A stretch of DNA of 64,000 nucleotides. Origin: an uncultured archaeon (lineage in GTDB: Archaea > Thermoplasmatota > Thermoplasmata > Thermoplasmatales > Thermoplasmataceae). The stretch's first letter is position 1; every line of letters begins with the position of its first letter. The stretch is from assembly GCA_000965745.1 (NCBI GenBank), contig CP009479.1, positions 1,760,001-1,824,000 on the forward strand, read 5' to 3'. The position numbers were made by a program, and so were the translations under genes. This document shows positions 32,738-63,527 of the stretch, in pieces. The notes beneath the pieces are model-generated. The model was not told where the DNA came from. It saw only the letters and a program-made list of their open reading frames with translations, and ran no database searches.

Positions 32738-33993
32738 GGTCATGTGCAGCAAGTGCTGTAAATTAAAGAGGGACTCCCCCACCGTGCAAATCCTCGATCC
32801 TCAAATACTTTCTCCCAGTGATCCATTCTTCATTCATGTCCATTAGAATGGAACCTGCTAACCTGATCAATGCTTTCTCAGATGGAAACGCACCCACTTT
32901 CTTCGTACGACGCTTGATCTCATAGTTCAACCGCTCCATCATGTTTGTTGTTCTTATCCTGCGCCAGTGCTGCTGTGGACAGGACTGATAGTTGTACAGT
33001 GAATCCGACCATCTATCGTACATCTCAGCAGCCCTGTCCATCCCATTATCGATCAAGGCCTGCTGTGCCAGCGGCATGAGTGAAGGATTTTCGAGAGATT
33101 CCTTCACTATGAGTGATACTGATCCCCACTTTTTCCTGGAGACCTTCTTCATCAGATTCCTGATGAAATGCACATGGCAGAACTGCCATGATGCACCCGG
33201 GAATGATCGGAGTACAGCCTCTCTTATGCCCTTATGGCCGTCGGATATGACGAGATCAAGGCCTTTCAGGCCACGATCCTTCAGATCATCGAAGAATGAT
33301 TCATAATCTATCTCTGTCTCAGAGTCATAAAGCCTTGCTCCCAGGATTTCCCTGTATCCATCCTCTCTCACGCCAGCTGCAATGTACAGCGCCATGCTTT
33401 TGTATCTGGAATCCTGTCTCACCTTTATGTATGTGGCATCCACATACATGTACCTGATCCCCTGTTCGATAGGACGCTCAAGGAATTCCTTCACCTTCTC
33501 ATCCAGCTCGGAGGAGAGTGATGAGACATATGACGGGGATACTTTTCGTATCCCAAGGGTCTCAACAATGCTCTTCACCTTCCTTGTTGAGACACCCTGT
33601 ATGTACGATTCCAGGGTTGCTGATTCAACTGCTCTCTCGACTCTGCTGTACCGGTCAAATACCTGTGTTTCGAATGGAAACTCACGTATCTGGGGCTTCT
33701 CCAGAGTGAGATCGCCGTCCGATGTCTTCAGTGATCTCTTCCTCTTGCCATTCCTGTGTGCTTTCCTCTGCTCAGATCTCTCGTACCATTTCGCCATGAT
33801 CTGATCCATCGCTTCCCTGTCCATGACTTCGTTCAGAAACCACTCGATCAGCTGTTTCTTCCCTTCCTGATTGTCATTCAGGAAAGTGCTTATTAATTCC
33901 TCTACCATGTTCAACTGGTCCTGCATTTTTGGTCCTCCTAATTCCAAATTTTGCGGGACCTCTTTAAAATTACATCACTTTATGCACACGATC
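32738..33993 (-). mobile_element. IS256-family insertion sequence
   Basis: IRs GGTCATGTGCAGCAAGTGCTGTAA.. / GATCGTGTGCATAAAGTGATGTAA..; 8-bp TSD TAAATTTT at 32730-32737 and 33994-34001. Confidence 0.93.
32763..33926 (-). CDS. IS256 transposase
   Basis: GVSTRKV, YVDAT, ISDGHKG, WQFCHVHF, RTTNMMERLN.EIKRR; GGAGG RBS before ATG 33926. Confidence 0.95.
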   Translation of the reverse strand: MQDQLNMVEELISTFLNDNQEGKKQLIEWFLNEVMDREAMDQIMAKWYERSEQRKAHRNGKRKRSLKTSDGDLTLEKPQIREFPFETQVFDRYSRVERAVESATLESYIQGVSTRKVKSIVETLGIRKVSPSYVSSLSSELDEKVKEFLERPIEQGIRYMYVDATYIKVRQDSRYKSMALYIAAGVREDGYREILGARLYDSETEIDYESFFDDLKDRGLKGLDLVISDGHKGIREAVLRSFPGASWQFCHVHFIRNLMKKVSRKKWGSVSLIVKESLENPSLMPLAQQALIDNGMDRAAEMYDRWSDSLYNYQSCPQQHWRRIRTTNMMERLNYEIKRRTKKVGAFPSEKALIRLAGSILMDMNEEWITGRKYLRIEDLHGGGVPL

Positions 33994-36743: not shown

Positions 36744-37388
36744 ATTAAAATTCCAATAGCAAATCAACTCAAAAAGAGACATCAGGTCGAAATTGCGGAA
36801 TTGCAGGATGAAGTTATGTCAATAGCTTATAGCGTCTGTGAAGACATTGTTTTCCACGGAGGAACTGCGATATGGAGATGTTTCTCCGGGAAAAGATTTT
36901 CGGAAGACCTTGACTTCTATTCCCGTACTTTTCCCGATGCTTCTGAAGAATTTGTAAAAATGGTTAAATCACATGGTCTCACAATCAGCAAATTGAAAGA
37001 TACTGGCAACGTTATATGTCCTTCAATTTCCAACAGCAGAGCAACTGTTAAGATCGAAGTCAACCATGTTATTGATGTTAAGGGAGTGGAGACTGCATAT
37101 GAGCTAGTTGATGGATCCTCTATAGAGATTATATGCCTCTCTCCTGAAAATTTAGTTATTGAGAAAATTGCGGCATATCGTGATAGAAAGTTTATCCGGG
37201 ACCTTTATGATATTTACCATTTAACGGGCTATGGTGTAGAAATTGAAGCTGTAAAGAAGGAGCTTATAGAATTTCTTTCACATACCGACAAGCCTGTCGA
37301 CGAGGGAGTTCTTAAAAGCATTGTTTATCTTAGTCTGCCACCATCCTATGAGAAGATGATAAGCACCATACGCAGGAGGGTTTCATGA
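36744..37388 (+). CDS. AbiEii/AbiGii-family nucleotidyltransferase toxin
   Basis: FHGGTAIWRC, RFSEDLDF, EKIAAY, RDLYD; frame is open from ATT 36744 (alternative start TTG 36801). Confidence 0.85.
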   Translation: MKIPIANQLKKRHQVEIAELQDEVMSIAYSVCEDIVFHGGTAIWRCFSGKRFSEDLDFYSRTFPDASEEFVKMVKSHGLTISKLKDTGNVICPSISNSRATVKIEVNHVIDVKGVETAYELVDGSSIEIICLSPENLVIEKIAAYRDRKFIRDLYDIYHLTGYGVEIEAVKKELIEFLSHTDKPVDEGVLKSIVYLSLPPSYEKMISTIRRRVS

Positions 37389-37975
37389 GGTACATTAGTG
37401 ATTTTTTACATCATTTTTCTGAAAAGCCTGCGTTTAGTGCAAATGAAGCGAGACTTTTTCTTAAACGGAGGGGTGCATCCGAAGGTTACCACAAACTGCT
37501 TTTAGAGAAGTTATACTCTTCTGGAAGGATATACCGCATTACACGTGGGCATTACACGTTCTATGAAGAGGTTCAACACGTGGGTTTTGCCTTTTCGCCT
37601 TTTTATTATGGGCTTGAAGATGCGCTCTCTCTGTTGAATTTGTGGGAGCAGGAAACTAACCCAGTAGTCATTACCCCAAGAAAGGTCAGAAGTGGAATCC
37701 GAGAATTTCGCGGAAGAAATTACGTTGTCAGGAGGATAGATAGGTCGATGTTTTTCGGATATATTTATATCAAATATGAGAAATTCTACATCTCAGTATC
37801 TGCCCCTGAAAAGACCCTCATTGATCTCTTCTACTTCAGGACTTACATCGAGAATGACACATATGATGAGGTCTTTAAAAACATCGATGCCACAAGGTTC
37901 AAAGATTATCTTGAAAATGTTCCTGGATGGTTGAAATCCAAGTTGACAGGGGTTCTTGATGATTCTGGAGGTTGA
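37385..37975 (+). CDS. AbiEi-like antitoxin
   Basis: GRIYRITRGHY, YYGLEDAL, VSAPEKTLID; ATGA overlap with the toxin. Confidence 0.8.
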   Translation: MRYISDFLHHFSEKPAFSANEARLFLKRRGASEGYHKLLLEKLYSSGRIYRITRGHYTFYEEVQHVGFAFSPFYYGLEDALSLLNLWEQETNPVVITPRKVRSGIREFRGRNYVVRRIDRSMFFGYIYIKYEKFYISVSAPEKTLIDLFYFRTYIENDTYDEVFKNIDATRFKDYLENVPGWLKSKLTGVLDDSGG

Positions 37976-38738
37976 ACAGTCAAAACATTCTCTAATAATG
38001 AAGGATAAGATTGGCGATTACACCGACAATTCAATTGCATAAACTAGAACCAAGTCGGAATGGACGCTACCCTTTACTGAGAGAAATAACCGCTTCTTCC
38101 TCAACATAAGTAATTATACCTATAAAATGGTGATTAAAACTCTATCATAGCATTATTCTAATTATAACAACATGATGTTTGCAGTATATGTCATGTTACT
38201 ATGTGGTATTGAATCAAGGGAAAGAAAAATATCATAAGAAGTACTCATCATTGTATATTATATCTGAGGAATTTTAAAACAATTCTAGACTGTTATCTCA
38301 TGTATCAATGACTAAATGACCATGCCGGTCTGAATTTAAGAGGTGAATCTTCAATGAAATTACTAGTAAATAGTAATTACGTTGTACATACCTATTTACA
38401 CGGTATAATGGTTATTTCATCTGTAGTTATCATCGATTTCTAATTTCATCAGTGAAACAAACCATGAATAGTCTCTCTCTAATAGCGATATTATCTCTAT
38501 GATAGCGGAAATAAGATGATTAAAACTGCGACATATAGTAACTAATATTTTTTTTTCAAAATAACGATGAAAACTTATTCCCAGTGAGGTATCATTATCA
38601 ATAAACTCACCATGTTTTGGCTATACCTTGGAAAATGCTGCCTTACCATGGTACTGTTAGTGCTGCTCGTTTCAACAATACTCCTCTCTGCTTTGGCAAT
38701 GTCTGTGCATTCATACCCGAAGTACAGAATAATAATTA

Positions 38739-38997
38739 ATGCCTGATCTCCACGTGGTTGCCAGGATCACAGGTACTTGTTGAAAACGGGCCGTTACAGA
38801 AGACAAAGCTCTCGCTGCCTGCCGATATGGCTTACGACAAAATGGTTGTTTACATGAAATAGATGATGGAGAACAACCTTATACAGGAGAATGCCGCTCA
38901 CATCGACCTGAATGAAGATGGAGTAAGAACCTGTGAAGAGGTAGTTTCATGGATCGCGCAGTACGTGGGCAGACTGTGCTTTCCAAGGGAAAGATGA
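38739..38997 (+). pseudogene. Winged-helix (HTH_45/ArnR-like) regulator pseudogene
   Basis: MPDLHVVARI, then frameshift to ENGPLQKTKL...MAYDKMVVYMK*MMENNLI...; in-frame TAG at 38860-38862. Confidence 0.6.
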
Positions 38998-39086
38998 TGG
39001 CCATCTATAGAAAGAAAGCAAAACTTCACCCGGTCATTCATAAAAATTTGTTTATTAACTGTATAGGGATCATATCCTGTTGCTTC

Positions 39087-39485
39087 ATGAGTGCTGATGA
39101 TGGGGTCAAACTACTAATGCAGAGGTCAGAGAGATTTCTGGAGAATGTGAAACATAACTTTGAGATAGGATTTCTGGATATTGCGGCTTTCAGCCTCGAA
39201 CAATCGATCGAATTATTTCTCAAGTCAAAGGTACTTGAGAAGGCCGGAGATTTTCCTCATACGCAAAATATCAGAACACTAATGCAGACACTCTCTGAGC
39301 AATCAAGTCAGCGGTGCAGTGAGATCGTTAAATCCTATCTTGACAAGCATGGAATAATACTCGGGGCGATTCAGGATGCATATATTACATCAAGGTATTT
39401 TGCGATCAATATTGAAAAAAATGATCTGGACAAGATGATCCAGGTGGTTCAGGAGATAATCCATGACCTTAGACATGTTTGCTAG
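39087..39485 (+). CDS. HEPN domain protein
   Basis: AAFSLEQSIELFLK, AYITSRY; paired with MNT. Confidence 0.85.
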   Translation: MSADDGVKLLMQRSERFLENVKHNFEIGFLDIAAFSLEQSIELFLKSKVLEKAGDFPHTQNIRTLMQTLSEQSSQRCSEIVKSYLDKHGIILGAIQDAYITSRYFAINIEKNDLDKMIQVVQEIIHDLRHVC

Positions 39486-45013: not shown

Positions 45014-45808
45014 CTACTTCTTTTCCTTTTTGAACAACCTGTCATAAGGGAATACAGAAGCCGCGATGACAATCACAATAAGTATGCCCAGGTACAGGTA
45101 TGCGTTGTTTGGAACCTCGTTGTACTGGGTCCAGCTGCCACTGAATCTCAGTATATTAAGCTTTATCAGTCCGACCCATGGTATCTGACCGTAGGAGGTT
45201 CCCACGACCTTATCGGGCTGTACCGGGTTGAAGCCGAATACGTTCTGGTCTGAAGCACTGTATGCATTCTGGCTGGAATTGTAGAGGGGGCTGTGTGCAA
45301 GATTGTAATCGCCTACGGTTACGTAGCCGTCCTTGCCGACAAAGTGGTTCAGGTAGACGATGAGATTTCTGTGGGTAAAGCCAACATTATCGATGATCAC
45401 AGCGTTTGAAGTAATTTTGATCCAGCTTTGGCCATGATCACCTGCGACAATAGGAGTTGAACCGTTCCAGGACAGGTAAAACATGGCCCTGTGTATGATT
45501 ATCCTGCCATTCGGGTCATGGTAGAGTATAACGTTTCCAAACTCGCCATAGGTGCTGTAGCCTGAATCTCTTCCCTGAACATAAGTTACCACATCTCCGG
45601 TAGAGTTGTGGATATTCTTGGCGAAAACAATGTCCCCGGTGTTTATGGTCCCATAGGTCCAGTTCTGTGAATGTTCCATGCTCTCTGACTCCACAACATA
45701 CAGGGGGGGCCATACGTCAGAGTATGCAATGACAGAGGCAACGCTTGCCAGAACAACTACTGCAATTGCGATAGAGGCAATCTTTCTTGCTTTCACGGTA
45801 CATCGCAT
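45014..45808 (-). CDS. Signal peptidase I, S26B (Sec11/SipW type)
   Basis: VVESESMEH (Ser), GDIV, IIHR (His), TVGDYN, IPWVG; N- and C-terminal TM helices. Confidence 0.88.
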   Translation of the reverse strand: MRCTVKARKIASIAIAVVVLASVASVIAYSDVWPPLYVVESESMEHSQNWTYGTINTGDIVFAKNIHNSTGDVVTYVQGRDSGYSTYGEFGNVILYHDPNGRIIIHRAMFYLSWNGSTPIVAGDHGQSWIKITSNAVIIDNVGFTHRNLIVYLNHFVGKDGYVTVGDYNLAHSPLYNSSQNAYSASDQNVFGFNPVQPDKVVGTSYGQIPWVGLIKLNILRFSGSWTQYNEVPNNAYLYLGILIVIVIAASVFPYDRLFKKEKK

Positions 45809-45932
45809 TAATTTATGAGGGTTAATAAATATATCCGATTAACATTTATTTCAAACTCAAGCAGCATCCAGGTATTTTAAAAAGTATTGCTGGCAGCCAT
45901 TGTTCGAAAAAAAGGTTGGAACTGGAAGATAA

Positions 45933-46556
45933 TTATTCAACACTGAGTGTGGACTGGCGGTGTTTGCTGTAGTTATACTCGACATTTTCAAAGGCATTGT
46001 TTATTTTGCGAGCAGTAGTGAACAGGTCCACAAGTATCAGAAGCAGCACTGCCGAGAATATTATGGTTATACCGAAAACAATACCATCCAGCTGGAATAT
46101 GATGCTGTCGGTGAATGCAAACTGGGTAGCAGTAACCAGGACGTATTCAGTTATGGCTATCATTACTCCGTAGATTATCATGAGTTTCCTGATCATTGAT
46201 GAGTCATGCTTGACCCTCTCGAGGTCTCTGCTTGGCTGCAATGCGTTTTTGAGGGACGACTCGAGCTTTTCCATATCCTTCATGGACATCATTGGCATAT
46301 CGTCCGGTTTGGTCTCTTCACCCATTTCCTCCGCAATCTCCCTTTCACTGAAGAACAACTGCGTATTGAGAGAGCTGTTCCTCAGGAACATTGAAAGCAT
46401 GTTCTTGGTGAATACCATGTTTGAGAGTTTTTCGATAGTCTTGACCTTGCTTTCAAGTCGTGAAATGTAGTCCTTGAATCCTTTTCCGGATATGTTGTAT
46501 ATCAAGAATGATACGACAAGTATCAGGGTAGGGATTATGTAAAGATACAGCAACAT
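45933..46556 (-). CDS. Hypothetical membrane protein (3 TM with coiled loop)
   Basis: Hydropathy pattern; GGGGCTG RBS-like site. Confidence 0.75.
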   Translation of the reverse strand: MLLYLYIIPTLILVVSFLIYNISGKGFKDYISRLESKVKTIEKLSNMVFTKNMLSMFLRNSSLNTQLFFSEREIAEEMGEETKPDDMPMMSMKDMEKLESSLKNALQPSRDLERVKHDSSMIRKLMIIYGVMIAITEYVLVTATQFAFTDSIIFQLDGIVFGITIIFSAVLLLILVDLFTTARKINNAFENVEYNYSKHRQSTLSVE

Positions 46557-46607
46557 TTTATTCAGCCCCCCTTCCAGGATATTTCATCTGATCATTATCC
46601 ATGAATA

Positions 46608-47036
46608 TCATGTACCTGGCCTCCTGATCTGGCTCTTGATGGCCCATCTCCTTTCCATTGCCTGCTTCATCTTCTCCTTGTCGCCACGGAACTCAGGAAC
46701 ATCGGGGGAAAGGGGGGCATTTTTCGCGTTTCCTCTCTTTACCTCCGATCTTATTTTCTCAATGGTTTTCTGCCTCTCTAGAATTTCCTCGAACTCCTCT
46801 TCTTCCATGCTGTTCTTCTGGCCGGCAATGTCTTCAACTTTCTTCTCGAGATAATTGACCGTTCTCTTAAGCATCTGAAATTCAAAATTGTCGTACAGCG
46901 CCCTTCTGATAACGCTCAGGGTGCTCTCATTCGGTCTCCTGAGAAGTTCTATCAGGACAAGGTCCTCCCTGAACAGCTCAACGGTCAGTGACTTCAGTTC
47001 CTGATTTTTGTTCTCCGAAACGCTTTCATTTGCCAA
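46608..47036 (-). CDS. Hypothetical protein, RHH-like N-terminus plus coiled coil (ParR-like candidate)
   Basis: SLTVEL / EDLVLIELL / STLSVIRRAL strand-helix-helix pattern; directly downstream of the actin gene. Confidence 0.55.
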   Translation of the reverse strand: MANESVSENKNQELKSLTVELFREDLVLIELLRRPNESTLSVIRRALYDNFEFQMLKRTVNYLEKKVEDIAGQKNSMEEEEFEEILERQKTIEKIRSEVKRGNAKNAPLSPDVPEFRGDKEKMKQAMERRWAIKSQIRRPGT

Positions 47037-47101
47037 TTATCATCATCCACTCATAATATTAGATGGCGAAAAGAAAATAAAAAAGAAGGATTTTCCTCGC
47101 C

Positions 47102-48091
47102 TTATTGTCCTATTTCCCTCTTTGCTGCATCCTTGTAGCCAAGGGCGTTTGCAAAGGGAAGATCCTCTTCGGGAATTTTAATAAGTGCACCCGGAGCCAG
47201 TGATTCGAGCTTTTCGCCAATAAGGGCCGCTCCCCCGCCAACCGGTATGAGTGCAGTGACACGGTCAAGCTCACTTCTCAGGTTCGCCCTCATGTTATCC
47301 ACGATCCTGTCTGCAAGTTCCTGAAGGAATGGTGCAGCGAATTCCGGGCCACCCACTTCTCTCTGCTTGAACATGACGCTTTCCGATATCGACTCGCGTG
47401 CAACATCAGTCGGGACAACAAACCCGGTTTCCCTGGCGATGGCCTTTGCAATTTCTGAAACTGAGTCTCCGACTCCGGTTGTTATGCTGAACGACATCTG
47501 GAGAACAGGCTCCATGGTAGAAAGGTTCAATGTAAGAACATCAGTTGTTCTGGATCCCACATCAATTACTGTTGCAAGGCCCTTCTGCTGTTTCATTAGA
47601 CCTTTCTCTATCATATAGAGTGCAGCTCCTACTCCCTGTGGCCTCATGACAAGCCTGTCTATGGAAAGCTGCCTGACTTCCCCGGACAGTGAAGTGATCT
47701 TGATGCTCCTGCCTTCGAGAGCCTTTCTGGATTCGGCCAGTTCCTTGTCAAAGGTTCCCAGGGGAGTCCCGCTTCCAAGAACCACCTGGGTGGGAGATCC
47801 ATCAGCTCCTGCACCGCTTGCCCAAAGGGCTGCCCCGATAAGGGGGAGTGAAGCATTGTCTGCGAGTCTTCCATCGCCCAGAGGCTCCCTTGCATTTGGC
47901 CCATTCGCATCTTCTCCAAATGCAAAATGGTCTGTGCCGTCATCTACACTTAATATGGGAATATTCCCACCAATCCCCCACGATGTTCCATCATGCTTTG
48001 CCCACCGGGAAGGGAAGCTTATTCTCTCATCATTTACACTGATTACTTTTGTATCTCCATAACCAAGGTCTATACCAACAACTACTGACAA
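47102..48091 (-). CDS. ParM/StbA-like actin homologue (Ta0583 type)
   Basis: GIDLGYGDTK, RPQGVGA, IDVGSRTTD, VGGGA, ANALGY; GGAGGTG RBS before TTG 48091. Confidence 0.92.
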   Translation of the reverse strand: MSVVVGIDLGYGDTKVISVNDERISFPSRWAKHDGTSWGIGGNIPILSVDDGTDHFAFGEDANGPNAREPLGDGRLADNASLPLIGAALWASGAGADGSPTQVVLGSGTPLGTFDKELAESRKALEGRSIKITSLSGEVRQLSIDRLVMRPQGVGAALYMIEKGLMKQQKGLATVIDVGSRTTDVLTLNLSTMEPVLQMSFSITTGVGDSVSEIAKAIARETGFVVPTDVARESISESVMFKQREVGGPEFAAPFLQELADRIVDNMRANLRSELDRVTALIPVGGGAALIGEKLESLAPGALIKIPEEDLPFANALGYKDAAKREIGQ

Positions 48092-48348
48092 CTCTTTACA
48101 CCTCCAACTGGAAATATCTTCCACAACTCTTCCATAACTAGTTGAGTCACTTATTGACTATCAGAGCCTTTTCGTATTAAAATCTTTACATCGACTGCAG
48201 GCGAAATTTTTGTCTAGACACGTTGAAAACTGCGGTTTCCCGTGAAATTTTTTTTCTTCATGAAGCCGTGTTTATCTGATTCCCACATTATTAGCCTTTC
48301 TATTTTGATATTTTTAATAGTTTTGAAGCACTACCACAGGGAGGATAA

Positions 48349-55344: not shown

Positions 55345-55590
55345 GATAATTTTCCTCCATTAGAATTGAACATTGTTCGCACGTCGCATGCGAAACGTAC
55401 TAGTTAAATCTTTACTTCTCAATCCGGTTTTACAAAGGTTTTCCTGGAAGATTCATAGACATGTAGCACTATTATTATTTTCTTCTAATGTTTTTCATTC
55501 AATTGTCAGACAACACAGTTACCCGAGCTCACGAACTTGATAGATTGCAGCCTTGAAGCTAAATGTAATTATATTTTGCCTAAAATAAAT

Positions 55591-55601
55591 CTGTCTGACA
55601 G
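55591..55601. promoter_or_regulatory. Palindrome CTGTCTGACAG just upstream of the TATA-like box of the vWA gene
   Basis: Related copies at 55503-55513, 63434-63442 and 48211-48220. Confidence 0.4.
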
Positions 55602-62595: not shown

Positions 62596-63339
62596 TCAGA
62601 GATTTATGTAGAATTGAAGTCTTTCCAGCATCTTTCTTCCCCTGTCTGTCATTTCGTATCTTTTGCCTATTGAGCTGTACTCGACTATCTTGAGAAGGTC
62701 CTTTGAAATCATTTCATTCAGCAGATTTTTTGCAGATTTGTAATTGAGGTTGCATTTGTATATAAGCTGCGTAATGCTCGCGCTCTTCATGTAGAGGACA
62801 CTTTCAAGGACATCCTGGATGATCTTGGTTCTGTCCCTGTTCTTTCTCCTGAATATTTTGGGCTTTTCTGAAAAGATTTCGTCATTGGCATTTCTCCTCA
62901 CCGTCTCCGTTACATCATAGAAAGCGTTGTGGAAGCGGTCCGATATCAATCTTCCATTCTGAAACTGCCCGACGTTGATGACTTTGAGGTGTGACATTTC
63001 AGAAAGTATCCTGTCCTTTGGTTCCATGGGAAAGTCTGTCAATACATAACTCAGGTTTGCAGAAACATCGTCCGACTTGACTTTGTGCAGCATGATCTTA
63101 CTGGCCTTGTTTTCATCGGTGGACCTTAGAAAAAGAATCGGGGCAAGCGCCTTGTTCGTTTCTGATTCCATCACGAGGTCAAAGTAGTGGAGAATCTGAG
63201 ATTTTCCCCTTATTGTACCCCTGAAAACTATCCTCCACTCCGTTGGATCTATCCCGAGAATTTCGGACATTCTTGTGGCAGTCTCGGGATCATCATTATT
63301 TAATTCGCTTTTAAAAGCTACAATGGCTGTCATATACAC
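62596..63339 (-). CDS. Regulator: restriction-endonuclease-fold-like N-domain plus C-terminal HTH_45 winged helix
   Basis: GKSQILHYFDL; RDRTKIIQDVL...ITQLIYKCNLNY...YEMTDRGR. Confidence 0.75.
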   Translation of the reverse strand: MYMTAIVAFKSELNNDDPETATRMSEILGIDPTEWRIVFRGTIRGKSQILHYFDLVMESETNKALAPILFLRSTDENKASKIMLHKVKSDDVSANLSYVLTDFPMEPKDRILSEMSHLKVINVGQFQNGRLISDRFHNAFYDVTETVRRNANDEIFSEKPKIFRRKNRDRTKIIQDVLESVLYMKSASITQLIYKCNLNYKSAKNLLNEMISKDLLKIVEYSSIGKRYEMTDRGRKMLERLQFYINL

Positions 63340-63527
63340 TCCCCAGTGATTTAAAGCCTTCCAGCGAAGGGTTCATTTATAACACAAATTCCGGGGATAT
63401 AAACGTATTGGTAACGCCGGAAGTAGCATACAATGTCTGACAAGCTGTTTCACAACATACCATTATCCAGCATGTCTGCCCTGTGCATCAGGGGGCAATA
63501 CTTTATATTGCCGTATATTAACAGAAT

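Follow-up and report, generated by a model that had tools for sequence, protein, structure and literature searches.

In this work we examine a pair of genes in a 64,000-nucleotide stretch of archaeal DNA (the window), which comprises positions 1760001-1824000 of the single 2.23-Mb contig (G000:C1) of an uncultured member of the Thermoplasmataceae. The first gene encodes a ParM-like actin-fold ATPase of the Ta0583 type (329 amino acids from a TTG start; 47102..48091, minus strand) and the second, directly downstream, a 142-amino-acid ParR-like protein from an unannotated, lineage-specific family (46608..47036, minus strand), to which we refer as the partner; positions are those of the window unless marked otherwise. 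Read along the minus strand from 48091 to 41612, the actin and the partner are followed by a 207-amino-acid membrane protein, a signal-peptidase-like gene, a 264-amino-acid membrane protein, three paralogous secreted (fiber) proteins and a 102-amino-acid membrane protein, every one of these genes being co-oriented with the signal-peptidase and fiber genes. An earlier, sequence-only reading of this DNA had described the same open reading frames (ORFs), namely an intact actin-fold ATPase, a small protein and a protein with three transmembrane segments in the orientation of the peptidase and fiber genes, and had remarked on the absence of replication, integrase and conjugation genes nearby. Our analysis agrees with it on both counts, since none of these three classes of gene occurs within about 10 kb of the actin locus. 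Taken together, the results presented below support the view that the actin and the small protein form a real, conserved and chromosomally encoded ParM/ParR-like pair that has no plasmid genes as neighbors.

The actin and its paralog

From its domains and nucleotide-binding motifs, the first gene product is classified as a ParM/Alp actin-fold ATPase of the Ta0583 subfamily. It matches Pfam ALP_N (1.7e-26) and MreB-like_C (6e-42) above cut-off, aligns over its full length with PDB 2fsj, the structure of Ta0583 (E 1.3e-130), and is about 60% identical to its Thermoplasma orthologs; the residues that bind the nucleotide (D8, G10, G12, T14, K15; D177, G179, T182, T183; G285-G287) are invariant in the actin alignment. 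The crystal structure of Ta0583 dates from 2006, and the cellular role of the protein is debated. The TTG start at 48091 has the sequence GGAGGTG just 5' to it and yields an N-terminus that agrees with those of the orthologs, while a longer ORF that begins with GTG at 48124 is probably not used. Work cited by PMC2651865 reports nucleotide-dependent polymerization into filaments for Ta0583; the actin described here is a putative filament former.

The genome carries a second actin, 57% identical to the first and located on the same contig at 480806-481777 (contig coordinates), which is likewise followed by a partner gene, in this case encoding 121 amino acids (pair at G000:C1:480806-482183, or L003:8804-10183). 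The neighbors of this second pair are a major facilitator superfamily transporter and a polysaccharide deacetylase, with no fiber, peptidase or three-transmembrane genes among them, and neither of the two actin copies is flanked by replication, integrase or conjugation genes of the kind expected of a ParMRC system on a plasmid or mobile element. Both pairs are present in all three genomes of the source genus. On the evidence of sequence comparison within the genus, the actin and the partner are both under purifying selection, with dN values of 0.02-0.08 and 0.11-0.22, respectively, and saturated dS.

Distribution and co-inheritance of the pair

Among 201 genomes sampled across the class, the actin is confined to one family, where it occurs in 24 of 41 genomes and 12 of 20 genera. 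A profile search finds the partner in 20 of these 41 genomes and 10 of the 20 genera, that is, in 10 of the 12 genera that carry the actin; each match lies directly beside an actin gene, no match was found in any family genome that lacks actin, and the copy numbers of the two genes agree, with two of each in the source genus. To define neighborhoods, about 30 actin loci were fetched and each was searched with all genes of the window cluster. A partner homolog directly downstream of the actin was recovered in the source genus (for both paralogs), Thermoplasma, g6, E-plasma, Oxyplasma and g82-g86, with considerable variation in length (102-106 amino acids in Thermoplasma, about 235 in g6) and a divergent version in E-plasma. 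Across 10 genera, then, the gene for the small protein directly follows that of the actin and is inherited together with it, as would be expected of a ParR adaptor. In Ferroplasma-like genomes a downstream 213-amino-acid gene was considered as an alternative partner and rejected, since it matches no Pfam family and does not resemble the partner.

The partner belongs to a tiny family, with 18 representatives among 1.84 billion proteins and 28 clusters in an index of 5.8 billion proteins, for which the sole source name is 'hypothetical protein'. The family appears to be undescribed in the searchable literature, where we found no paper that names the gene downstream of Ta0583.

In the actin phylogeny the Thermoplasmataceae sequences form one clade (97/97), placed beside clades from mobile elements, and within it genera are mostly coherent. 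The second paralog of the source genus forms a separate long branch, which groups weakly with a clade of Thermoplasma and g86. In one genome of the Ferroplasma-like genus g3 (G134; L023:2638-5107), the actin is a pseudogene with many stops; immediately upstream of it are a gene of the phage-integrase family and one that is AbrB/MazE-like.

Predicted fold and C-terminal motif of the partner

An AlphaFold2 (AF2) model of the full-length partner (pLDDT 78.7) consists of an extended segment, a helix at residues 23-32, a long helix at residues 39-102, a disordered stretch and a helix at residues 120-137, and it bears out the strand-helix-helix N-terminus and coiled coil that the sequence-only reading had recognized in the small protein. 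In the N-terminal part of the family alignment, two helices are separated by a turn of the G-E-[ST] type; a strand with alternating hydrophobic residues precedes the first, the second contains a conserved IRR, and after these elements comes a linker whose length varies between roughly 30 and 160 residues. Fold searches with the full-length model were swamped by matches to the long helix, and the N-terminal domain was for this reason modeled by itself (residues 12-64, pLDDT 93.5). When this domain was compared with known structures by VIA-align, the top ~35 rows were almost all ribbon-helix-helix (RHH) proteins, with about 50 residues covered and Z-scores of 4-6; the best match was TacA1 (Z 6.1), and the RHH proteins in the list included TacA, MazE, ParD (ParD2), NikR, PutA-RHH, TraM, AmrZ, Arc, omega, ParB-pCXC100 and ORF56. 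Protein-language-model neighbors (Atlas clusters), which we treat as leads only, were RHH_1, NikA-like, RepB-RCR_reg and DUF7557/VapB. At the level of predicted structure, then, the N-terminus of the partner adopts an RHH fold, with the putative DNA-binding domain extending over residues 14-60 (46857..46997, minus strand). The suggestion that the actin and an RHH-like small protein form a ParM/ParR-like pair has in this way gained both a modeled structure for the product of 46608..47036 and a conserved adjacency and co-occurrence over 10 genera.

Beyond the linker, the partners end in a motif, [LM]Kxx[LM]ExxW, in which E128 and W131 are invariant and K124 is nearly so among 30 partners. In the protein described here the motif reads MKQAMERRW (residues 123-131; 46644..46670, minus strand) and falls within the predicted helix at residues 120-137. 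From its conservation and predicted helicity we regard this segment as a candidate actin-binding peptide.

Upstream region

The region 48092..48348 upstream of the actin, which is not assigned to a strand, was read and compared between sister genomes as a divergent promoter region. It contains a TATA-like box, TTTTAATA, at 48176-48183 on the minus strand, and a TATA-like box is kept throughout the source genus. At 48211-48220 lies a 10-bp palindrome, TGTCTAGACA, which is conserved in two sister genomes; in one sister genome it has undergone a symmetric double change to TATCTAGATA, which suggests that it is a putative binding site for a dimer.

Several candidate centromere or iteron sequences were considered and rejected. 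The palindrome TGTCTAGACA is not enriched across the genome, where it has 2 copies against 2.4 expected, and the local group of four TGTC-N1-2-GACA sites to which it belongs ties with another region for the densest 20 kb of the genome. An 11-nt tandem repeat, TCTTCCAYAAC (48117-48138), is not conserved in the sister genomes as an iteron pair would be, and the sequence GTCTAGA, found ~120-131 nt upstream of both actin paralogs here, is not kept in the sister genomes of the paralog. The four TGTC-N1-2-GACA palindromes, all intergenic, occur within 15 kb (48211-48220, 55504-55512, 55592-55600 and 63434-63442). The fourth is located ~95 nt upstream of a winged helix-turn-helix (wHTH; HTH_45) gene at 62596-63339, which is a homolog of the wHTH gene that flanks the three-transmembrane ortholog in other genera, and these sites may accordingly be operators of that regulator.

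Relatives on mobile elements

Distant members of the actin family, at 39-47% identity, were found next to conjugation genes in all six cases for which context was available, these including genes for relaxases (MobL or Replic_Relax), a coupling protein of VirD4 type, TrbL and a VirB4-like ATPase. The contigs on which these conjugative-element actins reside (L056, L058, L059 and L103-L105) are metagenomic and have a GC content of 65-73%. Each distant actin is followed by an ORF of 85-105 amino acids with an RHH-like N-terminus, and most of these partner ORFs end in L..L[DEQ]..[WF]. The nearest ParM among the plasmids of PLSDB, from Sulfobacillus pY0017, is 29% identical and is also followed by an RHH-like ORF in the same gene order; no actin relatives were found in the viral contigs that were scanned.

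Clear, parC-like repeat arrays were also seen upstream of the actin in several of the conjugative loci, for example three 20-bp CTGTCCC-N6-GGGACAG palindromes at L103:3783-3940 and at least six GGGACAC half-sites at L056:4608-4985. Judged by these arrays and the RHH-like ORFs downstream, these two loci look like an uncharacterized ParMRC clade of high-GC bacteria.

Given these relatives, it could be asked whether the archaeal pair is what is left of an integrated plasmid or integrative and conjugative element, decaying and without a function for its host. The pseudogenized copy beside a phage-integrase-family gene in one Ferroplasma-like genome and the variation of flanking genes between genera are in keeping with this, as are the conjugative relatives themselves. 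In most of the genomes where they occur, however, both genes are intact. They fall in a single clade whose branching agrees largely with the genera, their dN is low while dS is saturated, and no other mobile-element genes flank either copy in the source genome; we consider decay of this kind extremely unlikely.

Linkage to the membrane protein, peptidase and fiber genes

The sequence-only reading had gone further, placing the actin pair at the head of the fiber gene block and proposing that, possibly tethered to the membrane, it positions or builds surface fibers or shapes the cell. In this scenario, the tether would be the three-transmembrane protein, and the pair and the adjacent SipW/TasA-like genes would constitute one operon. 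The membrane protein in question (207 amino acids; 45933..46556, minus strand) has a coiled coil and three hydrophobic segments, at residues 1-25, 124-144 and 151-185. It is separated from the partner by 51 nt with no T-tract, whereas the spacer between it and the signal-peptidase-like gene (45809..45932, minus strand) contains a T7 tract followed by two TATA-like boxes. The signal-peptidase-like gene itself (45014-45808, minus strand) has a weak TIGR02228 match. With a T7 tract and TATA-like boxes before the peptidase and no T-tract after the partner, the likely transcription units are one of actin, partner and three-transmembrane gene, and another from the peptidase onward; the three-transmembrane gene is, on this sequence evidence, probably co-transcribed with the actin pair here.

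An operon of this extent would be consistent with the co-orientation and short spacers of the block, with the lack of a T-tract between partner and three-transmembrane gene, and with the conservation of the order actin, partner, three-transmembrane protein, peptidase, membrane protein and three fiber genes in all three genomes of the source genus. This order was found in no other genus. Among five genomes of other genera, peptidase and fiber homologs lie between 70 kb and more than 1 Mb from the actin where they share its contig: the actin is at 613 kb and the peptidase and fiber genes at 404-406 kb in Thermoplasma (G106), at 1405 kb and 252 kb in G148, at 1410 kb and 490 kb in G208, and at 204 kb and 1008 kb in Oxyplasma (G204), while in G209 the actin and the fibers are 74 kb apart and the peptidase is on another contig. 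Nor are the orthologs of the three-transmembrane protein in g81, g82, g84 and g85 near an actin. Outside the source genus these orthologs have a conserved context of their own, with a wHTH protein on one side and a DUF211 protein plus a membrane protein on the other, and this context is broken up in the source genome. The second actin pair of the source genome, as described above, has no such neighbors, and the T7 tract and TATA-like boxes part the three-transmembrane gene from the peptidase gene.

The actin pair is consequently not a conserved component of a SipW/TasA-like fiber cluster, being unlinked to it in five genomes of other genera, and its position beside the three-transmembrane, peptidase and fiber genes is a genus-specific rearrangement rather than a functional operon. 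A role in fiber formation is not supported, as it rests on a gene order specific to one genus, and we rate the fiber operon as very unlikely. Likewise unsupported are a place for the pair at the head of the fiber system and a part for it in positioning or building that system, with linkage limited to the three genomes of the source genus, and so is membrane tethering, in view of the unlinked three-transmembrane orthologs of four other genera. The sequence-only reading had itself offered to give up its proposal should actin orthologs elsewhere lie apart from these genes, and the comparison of neighborhoods finds them apart.

In Oxyplasma meridianum (G204; C1:1007754-1010102), a paralog of the three-transmembrane protein is encoded ~1 kb downstream of a signal-peptidase homolog. 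This arrangement could be counted in favor of a fiber operon, but the three-transmembrane family may instead have a loose tie of its own to SipW-type clusters, independent of the actin. Just past the PolX gene that ends the fiber block, a Mutator-family transposase (32763-33947), which is the mobile gene nearest to the actin locus, is accompanied by an AbiEii-type nucleotidyltransferase and a HEPN protein (36801-39485). This plastic, defense-island-like stretch may explain the local rearrangement.

Proposed mechanism

We consider the best explanation of these results to be a chromosomally fixed two-gene module of ParM/ParR type, in which an RHH partner couples DNA to actin filaments, and assign this explanation a probability of roughly 0.6. 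The module would consist of a filament-forming actin of the Ta0583 type and a dimeric RHH adaptor encoded directly downstream. The N-terminal RHH dimer of the partner would bind DNA, at least in its own promoter region and possibly at further chromosomal sites, while the long helix would lengthen or oligomerize the dimer and the [LM]Kxx[LM]ExxW helix would dock onto the actin in the way that the C-terminus of ParR docks onto ParM. In this way, DNA would be linked to filaments as they grow and so be segregated or positioned. Binding of DNA and of actin by the partner is what we infer, and coupling through the RHH N-terminus and the C-terminal peptide is the most likely mechanism, as it follows the known logic of ParMRC systems (PMC12270681). 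As to its origin, the module would have descended from the par locus of a conjugative element, with mainly vertical inheritance in the Thermoplasmataceae thereafter, duplication in the source genus and loss of the partner in two genera.

A number of results weigh against this explanation. Searches of Pfam and NCBIfam (with the single protein and with all 30 family members) and of PDB (phmmer and profile) returned nothing significant for the partner sequence, the hits being limited to coiled-coil noise and weak RHH hints (PSK_trans_fac 0.024, DUF7557, 2kke E 1.1), and these searches consequently detected no homology to a described ParR or RHH family. The structural matches are modest, with Z-scores no higher than 6.1, and the Foldseek hits (CopG, MazE and the N-terminal domain of SeqA) have non-significant E-values, both of which are expected for a domain of ~50 residues. 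When archaeal and mobile-element partners were compared by hhalign, only the terminal motif was aligned, at a non-significant E of 0.39. No iteron array of the kind that forms an iteron-type parC was found upstream of the actin in the 14 Thermoplasmataceae loci examined; as a positive control, parC-like arrays were obvious in the mobile-element relatives of the actin. Finally, Ferroplasma-like g3 and Acidiplasma g87 retain an intact actin with the partner found nowhere in the genome; the actin is apparently able to function in its absence.

The last two of these points would be accommodated by an alternative in which the actin serves the cytoskeleton or the shape of wall-less cells and the partner is only an RHH autoregulator, with no coupling of DNA to filaments. 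A single conserved palindrome upstream, rather than an iteron array, is suited to such a repressor, g3 and g87 have the actin but lack the partner, and a published comparison (PMC10354927) mentions the actin for genera with deficient walls but not for Picrophilus. On the other hand, an invariant C-terminal helix containing tryptophan, located beyond a variable linker, serves no purpose in a simple repressor, the same architecture recurs in the partners of the conjugative-element relatives, and 8 of the 20 sampled genera have no actin. We hold this alternative to be rather unlikely.

The module, understood as a DNA-to-filament coupler, might also have been taken further by its host. Tentatively, and as a possibility well short of even odds, a ParMR machine of a conjugative plasmid could have been turned into a host system in which the partner occupies chromosomal sites and Ta0583-type filaments push or position the chromosome or nucleoid of wall-less cells. 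In the source genus, a membrane link through the probably co-transcribed three-transmembrane protein may form a further element of such a system. If true, archaea would here have their first system for chromosome segregation driven by actin.

Comparison with known systems

The closest described counterpart of the actin is Ta0583 of T. acidophilum (PDB 2FSJ/2FSK/2FSN), an ortholog that shares its Pfam domains and is likewise followed by the partner gene; it differs in belonging to another genus and in that the source genome described here has two paralogous pairs. Reviews group Ta0583 with ParM, and we found no mention of a partner or cargo for it in the searchable literature. Concrete handles on its role, with respect to both DNA cargo and filament dynamics, are offered by an RHH partner that is conserved, is inherited along with the actin and carries an invariant motif in its C-terminus. 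A tempting but unsupported link between actin and fiber cluster is removed.

With type II partition systems (R1 ParMRC; the ParM and RHH ParR of pSK41), the pair shares the succession of an actin-fold ATPase and a small protein with an N-terminal RHH domain, predicted in the present case, and a C-terminal peptide; of known structures, the ParM of pSK41 is reported to be nearest to Ta0583 (PMC4911067). The pair here differs in being chromosomal, with no plasmid genes near it and no iteron-type parC upstream, and its partner differs in having a predicted long helix (~residues 39-102) after the RHH domain and no detectable sequence homology to known ParR. The ParMs of conjugative elements (L056, L058, L059, L103-L105) have in common with the pair the actin family, the gene order, an RHH-like partner N-terminus and a similar terminal motif; those loci have relaxase and type IV secretion genes as well as repeated palindromes upstream, whereas the archaeal loci have neither. 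This resemblance links the beginnings of the module with conjugative elements from bacteria that share its habitat.

A further parallel is provided by Dh-cParM1 and Cb-cParM, genome-encoded ParMs of bacteria whose cassettes with ParR are likewise fixed on the chromosome and conserved among the members of a genus, and for which roles beyond plasmid segregation have been suggested (PMC12270681). That study makes no mention of Thermoplasma or Ta0583, the word 'archaea' appearing solely in an author note, and the actin described here has a weak sequence match to PDB 8x1i (E 7e-4). Those cassettes are bacterial, while the archaeal cassette is conserved over at least 10 genera of one family, and the pair described here extends the idea of a genome-encoded ParM from bacteria to an archaeal family.

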